Program-made: the position numbers and the translations under genes
Shown here: positions 8,970 through 64,000 of the stretch, piece by piece
Layout: every line of letters starts with the position of its first letter
How positions within the stretch are numbered: position 1 is the first letter of the stretch
The notes under the pieces: model-generated
The model's input: the letters and a program-made list of their open reading frames with translations, nothing else
Database searches by the model: none
What the model was told of the DNA's origin: nothing
From: Escherichia phage vB_EcoM_WFL6982
Direction: 5' to 3' (one strand)
Length of the DNA stretch: 64,000 bases
Sequence record: MK373774.1

Positions 8970-9647
8970 TTATCGCTGTTTTACACTTAACGGGTCAGGA
9001 TTCTCAGGGACATCTTCAAGGCCAAGCGCATAACGCTGAGCATATTTTAACATCAAAATATCTTTAGCACAATCATGAATACTATCATGGGCAACGAATC
9101 CTTTTAGCGTACCCATCGGTAATGGACACATACTTAATCCTCGTGTCAACGAGTAAGCTTCGATTGCCGTACGAATATCGCGTTGAGCCCAGAATTTAAC
9201 CGGTTCTAATTTATCAGTATCAATATCTGGTTCAAGAACACCTTCATCACGATAGAGGTCACGAATCAAATCGACCAAGATCGGGAAGTCAAAGCTCATA
9301 CCACGGCACCACATCTGTGATTTCCATTGGTCAACTTTATTAGCTCGACAATAATCTAAAAAGATTTTAATGCCTTCAAGCGTAGTGACATCGTCTTCAG
9401 ACGGGGCCAAGTTTTTACGTGCTTCAGCCGATTGCTCTTTCCACCATTTCATAGTGGATTTAGCGAAAACTCGCTTCCCTTTTTGAGAAGCTAAATTAAA
9501 TTTAATTCGCTTACCTCGTTGAACAAGTTCTTCAAATGATTCAACAACTTCAGGGTCGGAATTATATGCAATAACCGCAAGGTCAATAACAGCCGCTTTT
9601 GATGTATTGCCGAATGTTTCAAAATCTATAATAACATCAGTGCTCAT
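8970..9647 (-). CDS. dexA: exonuclease A (DEDDh 3'-5' exonuclease)
   Basis: 225 aa; matches T4 DexA sequence as recalled from memory (IDFET..AVIDLAVIA..GFVAHDSIHDCAKDILM). Confidence 0.9.
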   Translation of the reverse strand: MSTDVIIDFETFGNTSKAAVIDLAVIAYNSDPEVVESFEELVQRGKRIKFNLASQKGKRVFAKSTMKWWKEQSAEARKNLAPSEDDVTTLEGIKIFLDYCRANKVDQWKSQMWCRGMSFDFPILVDLIRDLYRDEGVLEPDIDTDKLEPVKFWAQRDIRTAIEAYSLTRGLSMCPLPMGTLKGFVAHDSIHDCAKDILMLKYAQRYALGLEDVPENPDPLSVKQR

Positions 9648-9656
9648 AATTTTCTC

Positions 9657-10970
9657 TCAAATAAAATGGACGTCAAAACGACCACGAGTCGTGCCGACAT
9701 ACAATAACTGTTTAGCTAATTCTGAATCAGCATAATGGATACACGGTGTATAAACAAAGGCCGTGTCAACAGACATACCCTGGGCCTTATGGAAGGTTGA
9801 TACTGGTAGTGCCTTCACCTTAGTGAACATACGTTTAGCATCCCAGAATTCGCTCCATGGAGCTTTACCGCCTTTATTCCAGAATTTGTATGTTTCTGCG
9901 GTCTTAGCCAAAAACAAATTGAATTTATAAAGCTCTTCTTCAGAAGAAATAACCTTTATATCTTCTCGGATATATTCTTCATCATCCCCATATGTTTCTA
10001 CTGTAAGATTCCAGTATCGTATCATATATTCACCTGAAACACCACGTGCTTTAACGAATGTAGACGTTTCTACAGCATCTCGAATACGAACGAATTGCCC
10101 ATTATTGAAAAGCATTTCAGTCATATTTTTGCCATCTAGCTTGTACGTCTTAGTAAACGGCTCTTGTAGAACAATGACTTCGTCTTTAATAAATGGTTTT
10201 TCTGTTTCAAGAAGTTTTCGGCGAATAATTGAATTTAACTTGTCCACCGACTTATTTGTGAATGCCATCATTCGATTTTCGAAAAGGTCTTCAGGAGTTT
10301 TAACGACGTTAAAATAGTTCATCATATACGATTTAAGGTCTGTATATCCGTGAACACCGTGTCCATCAACTACTTTATCGTAAATCCATTTGCCATTACG
10401 AATATCAGTCGCAACATCAATAATTGGTGCATTGCTACGTTTAACTTCTGTAAGGTTGCATTGCACGAAGTCTTTGTGAGTGAAGAAAGGACTTAGATAC
10501 GCAGTTGATTCGCCTGGGTCTACCGGTCGAATCTGGCATCGGTCGCCGATTCCAATTACTGTACACCATTTAGGGATACTAGCTAACATTATTTTAAACA
10601 GAGAACGGTCGCACATTGACGCTTCATCAAATAGCAGTACACGACACAAGGCTAAGTCGGGAACCTTTTTCTGTTCAAACAATACGTTTTCTTCGTATGT
10701 AGTTGGGTTGATTTTAAGAATGCTATGAATAGTCGATGCTTCTTGACCCGCAAGTTTGCTTAGAACCTTTTTAGCAGCATGTGTAGGGGCTGCTAAAATA
10801 ATACCTGATTCTCCTGAAGAAATAAGAGCTTCAACAATAAATCTAGTAAGGGTTGTTTTACCTGTACCAGCCGGTCCATTAATAGTTACATGATGTTTCT
10901 TTTCTTTAATAGCTTCCATAACAACGTTGAAGGCGTTTTTCTGGCCTTCAGTCAAATCATCAAATGTCAT
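9657..10970 (-). CDS. dda: Dda DNA helicase (SF1B)
   Basis: 437 aa; Walker A GPAGTGKTT; near-colinear with T4 Dda as recalled from memory. Confidence 0.92.
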   Translation of the reverse strand: MTFDDLTEGQKNAFNVVMEAIKEKKHHVTINGPAGTGKTTLTRFIVEALISSGESGIILAAPTHAAKKVLSKLAGQEASTIHSILKINPTTYEENVLFEQKKVPDLALCRVLLFDEASMCDRSLFKIMLASIPKWCTVIGIGDRCQIRPVDPGESTAYLSPFFTHKDFVQCNLTEVKRSNAPIIDVATDIRNGKWIYDKVVDGHGVHGYTDLKSYMMNYFNVVKTPEDLFENRMMAFTNKSVDKLNSIIRRKLLETEKPFIKDEVIVLQEPFTKTYKLDGKNMTEMLFNNGQFVRIRDAVETSTFVKARGVSGEYMIRYWNLTVETYGDDEEYIREDIKVISSEEELYKFNLFLAKTAETYKFWNKGGKAPWSEFWDAKRMFTKVKALPVSTFHKAQGMSVDTAFVYTPCIHYADSELAKQLLYVGTTRGRFDVHFI

Positions 10971-48869: not shown

Positions 48870-49166
48870 TTATTGTTCTACCCATGAACAAGAGACTTCA
48901 AAATCAGGACCACCGTATTCCCAGTGATATTCACCAACAGGAATCCAGTCACCGTGCTCGTTTTCTTCATAGTCCTCAGGCTCAAGGCCAACGAATCGCC
49001 ATTGGACACCGATGATTCGATTACCCATCATTACTCGAAATTCGCCCCATGGATTATCGATAGCATACTGAATATCGTTCTTGGCACGAGAGCACATTTC
49101 TTGATATAATAAAGCTTCTAATTCACCCTGGTCATAAGGGCCAGGGAAAGTTAAATCAATACTCAT
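48870..49166 (-). CDS. hypothetical acidic protein
   Basis: 98-aa ORF. Confidence 0.5.
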   Translation of the reverse strand: MSIDLTFPGPYDQGELEALLYQEMCSRAKNDIQYAIDNPWGEFRVMMGNRIIGVQWRFVGLEPEDYEENEHGDWIPVGEYHWEYGGPDFEVSCSWVEQ

Positions 49167-49426
49167 TTAAAATATTCTCGTAGTTGGTCAAATCCACCAA
49201 TGTGACTTCCGTCAGGAGCAAACACCTGAGGCATAGTCAATCCAACTTGTGATTCACGTCCAAGCTTAACCAGAAGCTCAGTAATTTTCTCATCATCGAA
49301 CACACCTTTTTCCGGCATAACATTAATGAATTCGAATGGTTGTTTCTTAACAGTCAGCAATCGTTTCGCATTATCACAATAAATGCATTTATGAATAGTA
49401 GAGTCATACCCGTACACTTTAAACAT
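49163..49426 (-). CDS. nrdC: thioredoxin/glutaredoxin NrdC
   Basis: 87 aa from MFKVYGYD; CxxC (CIYC); near-colinear with T4 NrdC as recalled. Confidence 0.9.
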   Translation of the reverse strand: MFKVYGYDSTIHKCIYCDNAKRLLTVKKQPFEFINVMPEKGVFDDEKITELLVKLGRESQVGLTMPQVFAPDGSHIGGFDQLREYFK

Positions 49427-53214: not shown

Positions 53215-54207
53215 TTATTTCAGTAAAGTAACTTCCGAGATTTCCTCCCAACCATCTTTATCAGTTGAAATAAAATCTGCTACATAAAGAGCCGTACGTA
53301 ATGATACATTGCGAAGACGAGATACGTTAGCCTTCATCCAGGACAATGCTTTGTACGTTTCTGCATCCGTCAGGCCACGTTTCTGCATCATGTCAGTAGA
53401 TAATATTACATCTTCAACTCGGACCATAATCTCTTCATTAGAGTGTACTCCAAGGTCGAGATACACTGAACGAGATACTAAAGCTTGAAGGTGTGGAGCA
53501 AGTTTCGAACCACGTTCTAACTCTTTATCGATATCAACGTTTGTAATGAAAACGATAGTACCTTCAAACTCAAATTCTTTATCAATACCCTTATCCTCGA
53601 GATAAGATGACGCAGTGCTCCAACAAACTTTGCGTTTATCTCCGGTATCTAATGCTGCTTTAAGAAGGTTCAGGATGTCCATATCTGAGAATACGTCAAC
53701 GTCATCGATTAAGAGAACGCTGTCTGCATCACGGTTGAGCCAAAGTTGTTCGTAAAGGCCAATACCAGAGATTTTACCATTAATGCTTTTGTATTTGATG
53801 AAACCATTATCATTAGCATTATTAAGTGCTTTATCCAGAGAATATGTCTTACCAATACCGGCTGCACCTGAAATAATGAGTGAACGAATTTTGCCATCGA
53901 TAATACCATTCGTCATCATGTTCATTACTTTAAAGCGTTTGTTGATACGAGTTTTCATATCTTCAGTGCTTTCAACAACTGCAACCGGTGACGTCTCAAC
54001 TCCTTCCATTATGATGTCTGATTTGAAGACCCATACTCCACGTTCAGAACCATCAATCATAACGAAAATTTTACCATCACCTAAGTGGGAACATTCAGGA
54101 TTAAGCTTTACCGGGAACCAGGTCTTTGTGGCAACATAAGAACCAGAGATTTCGTTATTACGATAGATACCTTTTTTGATTTGAACGTTGAACATTTTAT
54201 TCTCCAA
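53215..54207 (-). CDS. P-loop ATPase (AAA-like) with N-terminal extra domain
   Basis: 330 aa; Walker A SGAAGIGKT, Walker B LLIDDVD. Confidence 0.6.
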   Translation of the reverse strand: MENKMFNVQIKKGIYRNNEISGSYVATKTWFPVKLNPECSHLGDGKIFVMIDGSERGVWVFKSDIIMEGVETSPVAVVESTEDMKTRINKRFKVMNMMTNGIIDGKIRSLIISGAAGIGKTYSLDKALNNANDNGFIKYKSINGKISGIGLYEQLWLNRDADSVLLIDDVDVFSDMDILNLLKAALDTGDKRKVCWSTASSYLEDKGIDKEFEFEGTIVFITNVDIDKELERGSKLAPHLQALVSRSVYLDLGVHSNEEIMVRVEDVILSTDMMQKRGLTDAETYKALSWMKANVSRLRNVSLRTALYVADFISTDKDGWEEISEVTLLK

Positions 54208-54234
54208 ATTTACTCATTTCGTTTCGATAGGTCT

Positions 54235-54263
54235 ATAATAACATGTTTAAAGCAAAAGTAAAC
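54235..54263 (-). promoter_or_regulatory. T4-type early promoter
   Basis: GTTTAC-17nt-TATTAT followed by AGACCTATC. Confidence 0.6.
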
Positions 54264-54265
54264 AA

Positions 54266-54484
54266 TTATTTGCGACGAGATTTTTTGGTAAGAGGTTGAA
54301 AGAACACTGCTTTACCGGCTGGGGTTAAGGTGACTCGTAATGCATTACCGATTCCCAAGGATGCTTTAACCAGACCTTTAGATTTCAGTTCACCGAATGC
54401 TTGACGTTGGTCTGCATCACGAGTGTTAACCATAAGACCTTTATCACCTGCTTCACGAATCATTTCTAACATTTTTGTTTTCAT
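54266..54484 (-). CDS. hypothetical small basic protein
   Basis: 72-aa ORF. Confidence 0.45.
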   Translation of the reverse strand: MKTKMLEMIREAGDKGLMVNTRDADQRQAFGELKSKGLVKASLGIGNALRVTLTPAGKAVFFQPLTKKSRRK

Positions 54485-54514
54485 TTTGTTTTCTCCTCTT
54501 GTTTTGATAAGTCT

Positions 54515-54543
54515 ATAATAACATATCCTAAAAGCATGTACAC
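54515..54543 (-). promoter_or_regulatory. early promoter (variant -35 GTGTAC)
   Basis: GTGTAC-17nt-TATTAT followed by AGACTTATC. Confidence 0.45.
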
Positions 54544-54571
54544 TACTTTTTAAAAATATTTTGACCCCCTA

Positions 54572-54589
54572 AAGGGCCTGAAGGCCCTT
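54572..54589 (-). terminator. stem-loop downstream of NTase-fold gene
   Basis: AAGGGCC-tgaa-GGCCCTT perfect 7-bp hairpin. Confidence 0.4.
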
Positions 54590-54590
54590 A

Positions 54591-55580
54591 TCATTTATAG
54601 TACGAATTGTGGTTTTCTAAGTAGACTTGCTCAAGGAAGTCATCCCAGAAACTCATATCTACTTTTTGTTGCATACCGTTCTTAGCAGCTTGTTCTGCTG
54701 CATGTTCAACTTGGTCAACGATATCTTCTAGGAATTCTTGTACAGTTTTAAACGTATGTTTACCAAGCTTAACATCGAGAATAAATGGAGCATCCTGAAG
54801 TGGGTAAACCAGGTCGCCGGTTTTGTAAATTTCCAATAATTGAAGTCCACCACGACATGCATGACTCAATGCTTTCCAGTCAATACCTTCGTTGGCTTCT
54901 GCCTTACGAGCACGTTCGCCATAGTTCTCTTCCAGTTTAACCAGGATGGCATTGAACTCTTTATTGGTTAACGTATCTTGGAATTTACGGTCTAACAGAT
55001 TATAGAATGTTTGCATACCTGTTTTCTCGTTTTCGGTTTCAACCCACGAAGCAAATTCACCTACAGGCAGAACATTCTTCATATGTGATAAACGAATTAC
55101 TGCACCATTATCAAAGTATTGTCCCCATTCATTAGAACGTTTAAGGGCTTGACGAAGAACAGCCAGTCGAGAACCCTTGACACCGTATTTAGAAGCTTGC
55201 TTACGGACATACCCTAAATAAGATTTCATGTTAGTGGTATAGAAACGAGACCTGTTATCTTGAATATACTTCCATACATCAGGCAAATCAGATTTAACTA
55301 CTAGACTTTGTGGAGTGTGAAGCATGTCTAATGCGACGGTTTCACCGTCCACAGCTAGTTTAAAGAAATATTTGAGACTATACAACTCATGGTCCACGTC
55401 GTCTTTTGTGTTCTTAGAAGATGTGTTATTCGTGTTCTTGCTCATGTGTTCTTTAACGTTACCGGTCAAGATATCACGAGCATGAGGGACATAAATTTCT
55501 TTAAAATCGACGTCAGATTCAGGAGTAGACGTTCCATAAAGGTGGCTACCAAAGTAGCCTTTCATAATTGTTTTCATCAT
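54591..55580 (-). CDS. nucleotidyltransferase-fold protein (pol-beta superfamily signature GS-x10-DxD)
   Basis: 329 aa; N-terminal GYFGSHLYGTSTPESDVDF fits the hG[GS]x9-13Dh[DE]h motif. Confidence 0.55.
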   Translation of the reverse strand: MMKTIMKGYFGSHLYGTSTPESDVDFKEIYVPHARDILTGNVKEHMSKNTNNTSSKNTKDDVDHELYSLKYFFKLAVDGETVALDMLHTPQSLVVKSDLPDVWKYIQDNRSRFYTTNMKSYLGYVRKQASKYGVKGSRLAVLRQALKRSNEWGQYFDNGAVIRLSHMKNVLPVGEFASWVETENEKTGMQTFYNLLDRKFQDTLTNKEFNAILVKLEENYGERARKAEANEGIDWKALSHACRGGLQLLEIYKTGDLVYPLQDAPFILDVKLGKHTFKTVQEFLEDIVDQVEHAAEQAAKNGMQQKVDMSFWDDFLEQVYLENHNSYYK

Positions 55581-56050
55581 TTAGCCTTATATTCAAGAGT
55601 AGGACAGACTTTTTCTTTACGAGCTTTAAGGTATTCGCCTATTAATGATTTCTTACGTTCAATAGGCCCAAGTCCATTTTTAATTCGTTCTTGGTTTTGC
55701 GCAATGAGCTCAATTTCTTTATAATATTTTCTGTCGTTATATTTGTCTAACAACCAAGACGGACCAATTATCAATCCGGCAGAAATAAAAGCCATGACTG
55801 CTACCATTAAAATGCCTACACCAATTGAGGCCGGAACTAATGTCCATAGACTGCTAAAAACAAAGAATTTAGTTAAAATTTCATGGCCAACGATTGTGAC
55901 TGCTGCTAAAATCGCAAATCCAATAATTGAAACAGACAATACCGGAATTAACGTTTTCCAAAAATAAGCACACAACGTTTTCGGGCGATTCCATGTACTA
56001 TTGAACGCGGCATAAATTTTAAAGTGCCAAGAGTTTTCATTGATAATCAT
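55577..56050 (-). CDS. integral membrane protein, translationally coupled to NTase-fold gene
   Basis: 157 aa, three or four TM helices; ATGA stop/start overlap with downstream gene. Confidence 0.5.
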   Translation of the reverse strand: MIINENSWHFKIYAAFNSTWNRPKTLCAYFWKTLIPVLSVSIIGFAILAAVTIVGHEILTKFFVFSSLWTLVPASIGVGILMVAVMAFISAGLIIGPSWLLDKYNDRKYYKEIELIAQNQERIKNGLGPIERKKSLIGEYLKARKEKVCPTLEYKAK

Positions 56051-56059
56051 AATAATTCC

Positions 56060-56593
56060 TTATTTCAAAGTCGGGATAATAGAATCAAGATAAGCTTTAA
56101 GAGCAACTGCTTCATCTTTGTCTAATGTAACGATATGTTGACGAAGGTCATCAATTTGACGAATAACTACGACATCACCATCTTCATAAGAAGGATTAAC
56201 GCCTAGGACTGTTGTATAGTCAGGGCGGTCCTGATTTGTAATAAAAGCATTACGGCATTTAGCCCATTGAAGTTTGGCCTTTTTGGCTGTTTCAGATTCC
56301 ATTAATTCTTTCACCTTAGTGACGAATGTTTTCCAATTATTAATAGAAAAACATTCGTCTTCAGTTTCGATATTGGCCGCGTTGTAAAGACCCGGATAAA
56401 AACGAACTTGGAGGTCTTCACCAATGTTAATTACCTCTCGACGACGTCCAGACGGATTGAGTTTCAAAATCTTGTCCAGTTCCATAGGAAGAATAGTAGC
56501 AGCATCATCTTCTTGTGTCAGAACATACACATAACCACGTTTTTCGATACATAAATCACCGAACAACTCGGTTGTTTCAATTACAGTTTTCAT
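56060..56593 (-). CDS. hypothetical protein
   Basis: 177 aa from ATG 56593 (MKTVIETTEL..). Confidence 0.55.
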   Translation of the reverse strand: MKTVIETTELFGDLCIEKRGYVYVLTQEDDAATILPMELDKILKLNPSGRRREVINIGEDLQVRFYPGLYNAANIETEDECFSINNWKTFVTKVKELMESETAKKAKLQWAKCRNAFITNQDRPDYTTVLGVNPSYEDGDVVVIRQIDDLRQHIVTLDKDEAVALKAYLDSIIPTLK

Positions 56594-57436: not shown

Positions 57437-57886
57437 TTAGATAGATGTAGGCTCTAATTTTATTTTCATGAACTCGGCAAATTGTCTGGCAGTTTTTATG
57501 CCTTGTTCATGACATTCAAATGCATCATCACAGGGGCTATTTTTGTAATGCTTTGCCATATACTTATAGAATTTTTCAGAATTCTCGACATTTTGAATTT
57601 CAAACAAAGTATATACGTTTTTAATCCCTGATTCCATAAAGTTATCAAAATATGGGTCGGTATATGCAGTACCAACGATAGGAGTTGTTGCTGCAAAAAA
57701 CCCCAGCATCGCCTTAACATCTGTGAGGTATTTTTCCAGCTTGCGCTTGCGTGTATAATCAGCTTTAGAACCAGTTTGACGGATATCCTCGTTTAAATGA
57801 GAAATAGAATGTCCTAATTCTCTTCGGATTTCATCCAATTGGGTTACAGTAAGATTACGAAGTTGTCTTTCGTTTAATTGCTGCAT
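57437..57886 (-). CDS. rI: lysis inhibition regulator RI (antiholin), with in-frame N-terminal extension or alternative start near 57709
   Basis: C-terminal 75 aa ([32 protein letters not shown]) matches T4 RI periplasmic domain as recalled; 59 aa hydrophilic extension upstream in same frame. Confidence 0.75.
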
Positions 57887-63847: not shown

Positions 63848-64000
63848 CTATTTTTCTGAAGCGCCTGAAATATATTTTTCAAGACGTTGTTTCATCAGCG
63901 AGCCGTTCTTAGCGATTTCTTCTGGTTTATCGCACATACGCAACAAGGCTTCAAGCTTAGCGATATCGCTGGTACGTTCAAATTTGCGAGTATCTATCTT
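63848..64000 (-). CDS. C-terminal fragment of ORF continuing beyond window
   Basis: open frame from window edge ending ..KYISGASEK; 5' part outside window. Confidence 0.35.
   Translation of the reverse strand, partial: KIDTRKFERTSDIAKLEALLRMCDKPEEIAKNGSLMKQRLEKYISGASEK

Follow-up and report, generated by a model that had tools for sequence, protein, structure and literature searches.

A predicted long-form RlaP-family nucleotidyltransferase and its membrane-protein and AAA+ ATPase neighbours in the nrdC-rI region of a T4-like phage

We interrogated three neighbouring genes, encoding a nucleotidyltransferase (NTase), a membrane protein and an AAA+ ATPase, in a 64,000-nucleotide (nt) stretch of Escherichia phage vB_EcoM_WFL6982 (sequence record MK373774.1), referred to below as the window. 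The closest described systems are the phage T4 genes nrdC.10 and nrdC.11, for which matches to AAA ATPases and to the NTase group COG3541, respectively, were noted in 2006 (PMC1524935), and the RlaP enzymes of RNA repair. T4 NrdC.11 (NP_049709) has been placed in 'cluster 5' of the Pfam family PF10127, as a member of unknown function, in a December 2025 preprint on two Pseudomonas RlaP proteins encoded in rtcB operons (10.64898/2025.12.29.696909). According to that study, the two enzymes add one or two nucleoside monophosphates or deoxynucleoside monophosphates to RNA 3'-OH ends, prefer Mn2+, favour the 5' half of a cleaved-tRNA mimic, use neither DNA nor protein as a substrate, and raise the aminoacylation of a repaired tRNA that is without one anticodon-loop nucleotide (10.64898/2025.12.29.696909). 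Their 3'-OH product is compatible with 5'-P/3'-OH ligases of the Rnl1 type (10.64898/2025.12.29.696909). In jumbo phages, the distribution of RlaP mirrors that of RNA ligases, and RlaP has been predicted to restore nucleotides lost to RloC-like RNases before ligation (Iyer et al. 2021, PMC7824862). RloC itself is described as excising the wobble nucleotide (PMC2610378, PMC3458546).

The three genes lie between the nrdC ortholog (49163..49426) and rI/tk (about 57.4-58.5 kb), and the minus strand carries every gene of the locus. The surrounding 3.7 kb is 100% identical, at the same coordinates, to Escherichia phage vB_EcoM_WFK (MK373775.1; Mosigvirus, Straboviridae, T4-like); the window corresponds to bases 1-64000 of that record, from which genes beyond position 64000 were taken. 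Gene identities were set using the T4 reference annotation and tblastn. We consider it probable that these are three separate, widely conserved T4-like early genes positioned by inherited order, comprising an RlaP-family RNA-end repair enzyme, an independent AAA+ ATPase and a membrane protein of PHROG 944.

Sequence, fold and family of the nucleotidyltransferase

The NTase gene (54591..55580) encodes 329 amino acids. Its translation contains the motif G11-S12-x10-D23-V24-D25 (GSHLYGTSTPESDVD, residues 11-25, encoded by 55506..55550 on the minus strand), the GS-x10-DVD signature of the polymerase beta (pol-beta) superfamily on which the original prediction for this locus had rested. Near-identical homologs (at least 98%) from one search were set aside, and representatives at 50% identity were used to obtain diversity. 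A HMMER search with the NTase recovered 3227 such representatives, 736 of them at E <=1e-30, and nearly all of the best 150 listed are full-length. Across 59 diverse homologs, G11, S12, G16, S22, D23, D25, Y132, R223, K236 and R243 are invariant. The catalytic residues of the signature align with those that are invariant in canonical RlaP. D61, D63 and D85 are nearly invariant, with D61 and D63 at least 90% conserved. The first two belong to a third acidic cluster, DVDHE (residues 61-65, encoded by 55386..55400 on the minus strand), which is located on a predicted strand (62-68) of the NTase model and aligns with the invariant aspartate of the LDxNGWD motif in canonical RlaP. This cluster probably supplies the third metal-binding carboxylate on the following beta strand.

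PF10127 ('RNA repair pathway DNA polymerase beta family', RlaP) is the sole significant Pfam family, scoring 49 bits (cutoff 23; E 8.4e-13). Specifically, the match spans only residues 7-137 of the NTase and profile positions 23-144 of 249. The protein also matches phrog_388 ('nucleotidyltransferase') at 4e-126 and is 77% identical to T4 NrdC.11 over its full length. Using hhalign, we compared this long form with canonical RlaP neighbours and obtained a match at a probability of 93.7% and an E value of 1.9e-7, over about 117 N-terminal columns only. A few phage homologs of the NTase give weak second-domain RlaP matches; the hhalign match itself is confined to those N-terminal columns, and the C-terminal half is helical by model. 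The crystal structure of PfRlaP has a helical C-terminal domain and a terminal helix that packs against the NTase domain.

An AlphaFold2 model of the NTase, built with the homolog alignment as input, has a predicted local distance difference test (pLDDT) score of 93.6. Its N-terminal NTase domain is of the alpha/beta type and its C-terminal half is helical; the model also has further helices and a beta insertion of three strands (177-201). The best structural matches are pol-beta NTases, placing the protein inside the superfamily as anticipated; kanamycin NTase, LinB and MNT-type proteins are among them, and HEPN-like helical bundles are among the matches of the C-terminal part. Against the PDB, neither sequence nor profile searches with the NTase gave a significant hit, and no RlaP structure was matched there by sequence or fold. 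From motifs, profile matches, the predicted fold and the identity to T4 NrdC.11, we assign the NTase to the pol-beta superfamily as a long-form member of the RlaP family and the ortholog of NrdC.11. The kanamycin NTase, LinB, MNT-type and HEPN-like matches would also suit an enzyme that modifies a non-RNA substrate (a small molecule, a protein or a DNA end) in the manner of aminoglycoside and lincosamide NTases or MNT AMPylases, a role that we judge very improbable for a protein with this family match.

The original prediction had named CD-NTases, MNT toxins or antitoxins and antibiotic nucleotidyltransferases as carriers of the signature; none of these agrees with the profile search, which gives RlaP. 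Identity as a cGAS/DncV-like nucleotidyltransferase (CD-NTase) of a cyclic-oligonucleotide-based antiphage signalling system (CBASS) was rejected, as there was no CD-NTase/SMODS Pfam match, no PADLOC match and no cGAS/CD-NTase structure among the matches listed. The MNT of an HEPN-MNT pair was rejected as well: the NCBIfam MntA model scores 12.9 bits against a cutoff of 60, and MNT structures match weakly. The neighbours of the NTase are the membrane protein and a 72-residue open reading frame (ORF), and an HEPN gene is not among them. An antibiotic-NTase subfamily was rejected because the family is RlaP. PADLOC gave no matches, and NCBIfam none that were usable.

RNA-repair context and proposed function

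A scan of bacterial and archaeal genomes yielded 80 loci with full-length NrdC.11-type relatives at 34-52% identity. Like the phage protein, these long-form relatives match PF10127 over the N-terminal ~135 residues only, at about 50 bits. Of 70 bacterial loci, 13 encode RtcB (9 loci), Ro60/TROVE (6) or Pnkp ligase (3) no further than 6 kb away, and thus the association with RNA repair holds for the long-form subfamily in cellular genomes. We consider it most likely, by analogy, that the phage NTase repairs tRNA/RNA ends together with the phage proteins PseT and Rnl1. Host anticodon nucleases of the RloC type would remove a nucleotide from tRNA and leave deficient halves, the NTase would restore the missing nucleotide at the 3' end of the tRNA half, and the PseT kinase/phosphatase and RNA ligase 1 would then reseal a functional tRNA. 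The NrdC.10 ortholog would meanwhile act as an independent AAA+ ATPase under its own early promoter. The step from an RlaP-family N-terminal domain to the addition of nucleotides on broken tRNA during infection is one that we infer by this analogy. The partner enzymes are encoded in the WFK genome, with polynucleotide kinase at 130296..131195 and RNA ligase 1 at 133148..134272, about 75 kb from the NTase.

A different purpose at RNA 3' ends, such as rebuilding CCA ends after toxin damage or tailing host or phage transcripts, would fit several of the same data. Labelling by canonical RlaP extends to rRNA, full-length tRNA and tRNA fragments and shows little specificity among nucleoside triphosphates (10.64898/2025.12.29.696909), and a different RNA target would be compatible with the divergent C-terminal half of the long form. 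In Aeromonas phage AS-sw, in addition, genes for a tRNA nucleotidyltransferase and an HD phosphohydrolase lie no more than 5 kb from the NrdC.11 homolog. We nevertheless regard such a purpose as unlikely, since the bacterial associations with RtcB, Ro60 and Pnkp point to break repair and published predictions favour the restoration of excised nucleotides.

The bacterial loci also revealed a tandem arrangement. Among the 64 loci with enough downstream sequence, 15 have a canonical RlaP (255-270 residues, 175-272 bits over the whole profile) immediately downstream of the long form. The stop and start codons often overlap, and the cases include L106 (6004-6939 and 6966-7730), L116 (6004-6975 and 6979-7746), L162 (5929-6984 and 6981-7790) and 12 more. 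The long form and canonical RlaP thus make up a recurrent two-NTase cassette, of which we found no description in the RlaP literature cited here. The phage loci yielded no canonical RlaP, and neither did WFK over 1-64 kb and 118-164.6 kb. In the most far-reaching reading, the long NrdC.11-type NTase would be a functionally distinct RlaP branch, whose frequent position directly upstream of canonical RlaP would point to a two-enzyme system in bacteria, for example with different nucleotide or RNA-end specificities or as a heterodimer. T4-like phages would have kept the long form only, and in Tevenvirinae it might act at the membrane with the PHROG 944 protein and NrdC.10 as a hitherto unrecognised counter-defence unit against RNA-targeting host immunity. 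We give this scenario only a very slim chance, and return below to the three genes as separate entities.

Gene order, transcription signals and the two neighbouring proteins

Immediately upstream of the NTase, the membrane-protein gene (55577..56050) ends in a TGA (55579..55577) that overlaps the NTase ATG at 55580, forming the ATGA junction that the original prediction had placed at 55580/55577. On the minus strand the junction reads ...GCTAAATGATGAAAAC, also read as AAATGATGAAA. A second in-frame ATG lies at 55577, which is the start chosen in the GenBank record. Such overlaps are frequent here: of the 36 gene junctions at 45-62.5 kb, 16 are overlapping, with 4 nt shared in 6 cases and 1 nt in 5. 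In other phages, moreover, many unrelated upstream genes that do not encode membrane proteins have the same -4 overlap with the start of the NTase gene. The ATGA overlap is therefore generic, reflecting the ordinary tight packing of these genomes.

On the other side, the ATPase gene follows the NTase on the same strand, as had been described, with other elements in between. Directly 3' of the NTase stop codon is a GC-rich hairpin (54572..54589), annotated in GenBank as a putative terminator, with a poor U tract, a predicted fold of -12.5 kcal/mol and a z-score of -1.2. It is followed by a promoter-like site, TGTACA-16-TATTAT with an extended TG (54515..54542), and by the 72-residue ORF (54266..54484), which matches phrog_6001 and is without a counterpart in T4. 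The ATPase ATG at 54195 is preceded by GGAG, with an alternative TTG at 54207, and the start is most likely 54195 rather than the 54207 initially given. Upstream of this start lies a T4-early-type promoter-like site, GTTTACT...TGTTATTAT (54235..54262), in which TTTACT-16-TATTAT with an extended TG (54262..54235 in the coding direction) stands in the GTTTAC context typical of T4 early promoters. The promoter of its own that had been proposed for the ATPase is thus matched by a candidate site; both promoter calls rest on position and T4-type context, as the sigma-70 scan overall is not enriched (17 sites against 16.0 expected from shuffled sequence). Given the hairpin and the promoter-like elements between them, the NTase and ATPase genes probably belong to separate transcription units, and an additional gene lies between the two. 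We also observed that the regions 54515..54545 and 54235..54265 on the minus strand share a near-identical stretch, ATGTTATTATAGAC[T/C]TATC[A/G]AAAC. This repeat upstream of both genes suggests that the 72-residue ORF may have arrived as a cassette with a duplicated promoter.

We collected 86 phage loci containing the NTase and located the ATPase and membrane-protein homologs using hidden Markov models. The ATPase is downstream of the NTase in 38 of the 86, at a spacing of 21-2268 nt. The membrane gene is upstream in 47, either with a 4-nt overlap or at 340-1200 nt or more with inserted genes; a stop/start overlap of the two recurs in about 15 loci. The order membrane gene, NTase, ATPase on one strand is found only in enterobacterial and Acinetobacter T4-like phages. 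Neither the ATPase nor the membrane gene occurs within 8 kb of the NTase in 38 loci from more distant phages (at most 55% identity; Aeromonas, Vibrio, Caulobacter, Klebsiella and other groups), and neither partner is nearby in the bacterial NTase loci. T4 and one close relative are without the membrane gene entirely; by tblastn, the T4 locus has no homolog of it, and the mobD HNH homing endonuclease gene occupies the position. Each of the three genes is present in about 1250-1570 phage records. The location in the nrdC-rI region, called hypervariable in the original prediction, is thus correct, but the variability lies in small inserted ORFs and not in the three genes themselves.

The original prediction had also implied that the three proteins form a coupled module. 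A single functional accessory unit of membrane protein, NTase and AAA+ ATPase, for instance in anti-defence or signalling, would be in keeping with the shared strand and order in many Tevenvirinae-like phages, including those of Acinetobacter, and with the stop/start overlap in about 15 loci. However, the membrane gene is missing from T4 and close relatives, the NTase stands alone in the 38 more distant phage loci and in bacterial loci, and the ATPase and the membrane protein each occur solo elsewhere; together, these absences and solo homologs leave an obligate partnership without support. The NTase and ATPase are further separated by the hairpin, the two promoter-like sites and an insert of variable length, PADLOC is without matches, and the ATGA overlap is generic. 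We therefore hold such a unit to be improbable, and the claim of a coupled anti-defence or signalling module is not supported. The arrangement is best read as inherited order within a compact early region that has hot spots for insertion between its genes, and not as a co-inherited functional unit.

The membrane protein (157 residues; phrog_944 at 5.2e-52) has hydrophobic stretches at residues 33-55 and 62-101, sufficient for 2-3 transmembrane helices and in line with the multi-spanning protein first proposed, followed by a basic C-terminal tail. Homologs are present in 1251 phage records, among them T2, T6, ICP1 and PaP1. Family features are an N-terminal SWH, a P..LCxYFW motif that precedes the first hydrophobic segment, and KAxKxKxCP at the C-terminus. 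The family thus has two conserved cysteines (LCxYFW, KxCP) in addition to the SWH motif, and these residues might form a metal site. In T2 and T6 the homolog adjoins the NTase. In ICP1 it is gp169, followed by a dNMP-kinase-like gene (deoxynucleoside monophosphate), and in PaP1 (gp023-gp021; L009 4001-5764) it immediately precedes genes for an Rnl1-like RNA ligase and a small P-loop kinase. Just upstream of PaP1 gp023 we noted metallophosphoesterase and HD phosphohydrolase genes, making this an RNA-repair-like neighbourhood without RlaP. In an Erwinia jumbo phage, the homolog sits amid unknown genes. No NrdC.11 homolog was found at the ICP1, PaP1 and Erwinia jumbo phage loci, and no consistent partner of the membrane protein was found across them.

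Pairing of an NTase with a membrane protein invites comparison with Hailong and CBASS, in which case the membrane protein would sense, or be gated by, a cyclic nucleotide or oligonucleotide made by the NTase, or this NTase product would imitate a host signal or counteract one. The similarity to the Hailong NTase HalB, however, is generic for a minimal NTase domain (16% identity, Foldseek E ~0.02, template modelling score 0.25-0.37). There is again no match to CD-NTase/SMODS Pfam families or in PADLOC, the membrane/NTase pairing is not obligate, and the significant family is RlaP, whose bacterial members lie beside RtcB, Ro60 and Pnkp. We consider a pair of this kind extremely improbable.

The ATPase gene (53215..54195) encodes 326 residues with 78% identity to T4 NrdC.10, in the same gene order. 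Translation gives a Walker A motif, GAAGIGKT (53845..53868), and a Walker B motif, VLLIDDVD (53695..53718), both on the minus strand. In a diverse alignment of 69 homologs, built with the Vibrio phage XZ1 homolog as query, G113, G115 and K116 of the former and D164, D165 and D167 of the latter are invariant, as are N219 (sensor 1), R242 in an SRS motif and R300. The protein matches PHROG 1250 at 2.7e-161, with Pfam AAA_22/AAA_16 sub-threshold only, and its profile reaches RFC4 (6e-4), Cdc6, a DnaC-like helicase loader, ORC and TnsC in the PDB. In the AlphaFold2 model (pLDDT 93.9), a separate beta-rich domain (residues 1-64) and a linker helix precede the AAA+ core with its helical lid, consistent with the extra N-terminal domain that had been ascribed to this P-loop ATPase. 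With Walker A and B, sensor 1, arginine motifs, a predicted alpha-beta core and a lid, we take it to be a bona fide AAA+ protein. A search for a gene that regularly accompanies the ATPase covered Vibrio phage XZ1, Pseudomonas phage 30-3 and three metagenomic phage contigs and found none. The XZ1 homolog sits between an SLT-domain gene and a topoisomerase gene, and those in the three contigs are surrounded by unrelated small ORFs. In a single case, a metagenomic phage contig with an NrdC.10-type ATPase (L174) encodes a Thg1-family 3'-5' nucleotidyltransferase (9541-10275) about 3.6 kb downstream.

Several observations weigh against the reading of three separate genes with an RNA-end repair NTase. 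RlaP activity has been measured for the Pseudomonas enzymes only, a canonical form, and its extension to NrdC.11 and the long form is by analogy. Residues ~140-329 of the NTase, including the beta insertion, are without alignment to canonical RlaP, and its substrate or product could therefore differ. The T4 nrdC.11-mobD.3 block is deletable under laboratory conditions (PMC9825161), so any role of NrdC.11 would be conditional. The most persistent NTase neighbours in phages are rI and rI.-1, with no adjacency to RNA ligase or PseT; among the 86 phage loci, the only recurring partners found were the synteny genes rI, rI.-1 and tk and a NUDIX protein; no ligase recurs within 5 kb, and no kinase recurs. 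The NUDIX protein is near the NTase in 14 of the 38 distant phage loci (a protein of ~352 residues with a C-terminal NUDIX domain, e.g. L053 6382-7440, ~1-3 kb upstream of the NrdC.11 homolog). The position of PaP1 gp023 beside an Rnl1-like RNA ligase is suggestive, in a single lineage. Finally, the order membrane gene, NTase, ATPase is kept in Escherichia, Klebsiella, Enterobacter and Acinetobacter phages, the Acinetobacter ATPase and membrane protein being 61% and 26% identical to those in the window. This conserved order weakly hints at shared selection. A looser functional link in Tevenvirinae has a small probability, which the PaP1 adjacency of membrane gene and ligase sustains.

Flanking genes, significance and comparison with known systems

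Upstream of the membrane gene is the ortholog of MobD.1 (y05I; 56060..56593), identified by PF24449 and PF24448, by sequence and by comparison with T4. It ends 9 nt from the membrane gene on the same strand, and the two are therefore probably co-transcribed. Plus-strand ORFs across the locus reach at most 118 residues, and an Rfam scan of both strands at 50-59 kb matched no RNA family. Further upstream, a 149-residue ORF (57437..57886, minus strand) is an in-frame fusion of rI.1 and rI. It results from a 78-nt deletion relative to phage GADS24 and T4, which takes out the stop codon of rI.1 together with the ribosome-binding site and ~8 initial codons of rI (part of its N-terminal signal-anchor region). 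On this basis, lysis inhibition may be defective in this isolate (r-type).

Should NrdC.11 indeed put lost nucleotides back onto cleaved tRNA, it would complete the classic T4 PseT/Rnl1 tRNA-repair pathway and explain how T-even phages could survive nucleotide-excising anticodon nucleases like RloC, which have been proposed to defeat phage repair. The idea of RNA-end repair is already published, by Burroughs and Aravind (whose work we know through its citation by others), Iyer et al. 2021 and Carruthers et al. 2025. The three genes are likewise already catalogued, and the window holds one more ortholog of each and no new kind of system. Modestly new are the long-form subfamily with its divergent C-terminal half and its frequent bacterial tandem with canonical RlaP. 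The CD-NTase/MNT and coupled-module readings can be dropped, and T4, as a natural knock-out of the membrane gene, is useful for experimental design.

Among known systems, Hailong HalB-HalA is a defence NTase and membrane channel that form an obligate pair at a host locus, whereas the window holds a phage locus in which the pairing is not conserved, the NTase has no family-level sequence match to HalB and its family is RlaP. The ATPase resembles clamp-loader/initiator-clade AAA+ proteins (RFC, Cdc6/ORC, DnaA/Hda, DnaC-like loaders) in its motifs, with a DDVD Walker B and an SRS arginine motif; the arginine-finger motif of RFC/gp44-type clamp loaders is SRC. T4 NrdC.10 holds the same position as this ATPase and does not differ from it in substance, though the window copy is set off from nrdC.11 by an extra ORF and a promoter. 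T4 NrdC.11 shares its Pfam family and its position upstream of nrdC.10 with the window NTase; its upstream neighbour in T4 is mobD and no 72-residue ORF precedes nrdC.10, whereas the window has the membrane gene and that ORF. [quoted passage not shown] Canonical RlaP is found in an RNA-repair neighbourhood, and it is this neighbourhood that the bacterial long-form relatives of the phage NTase share.

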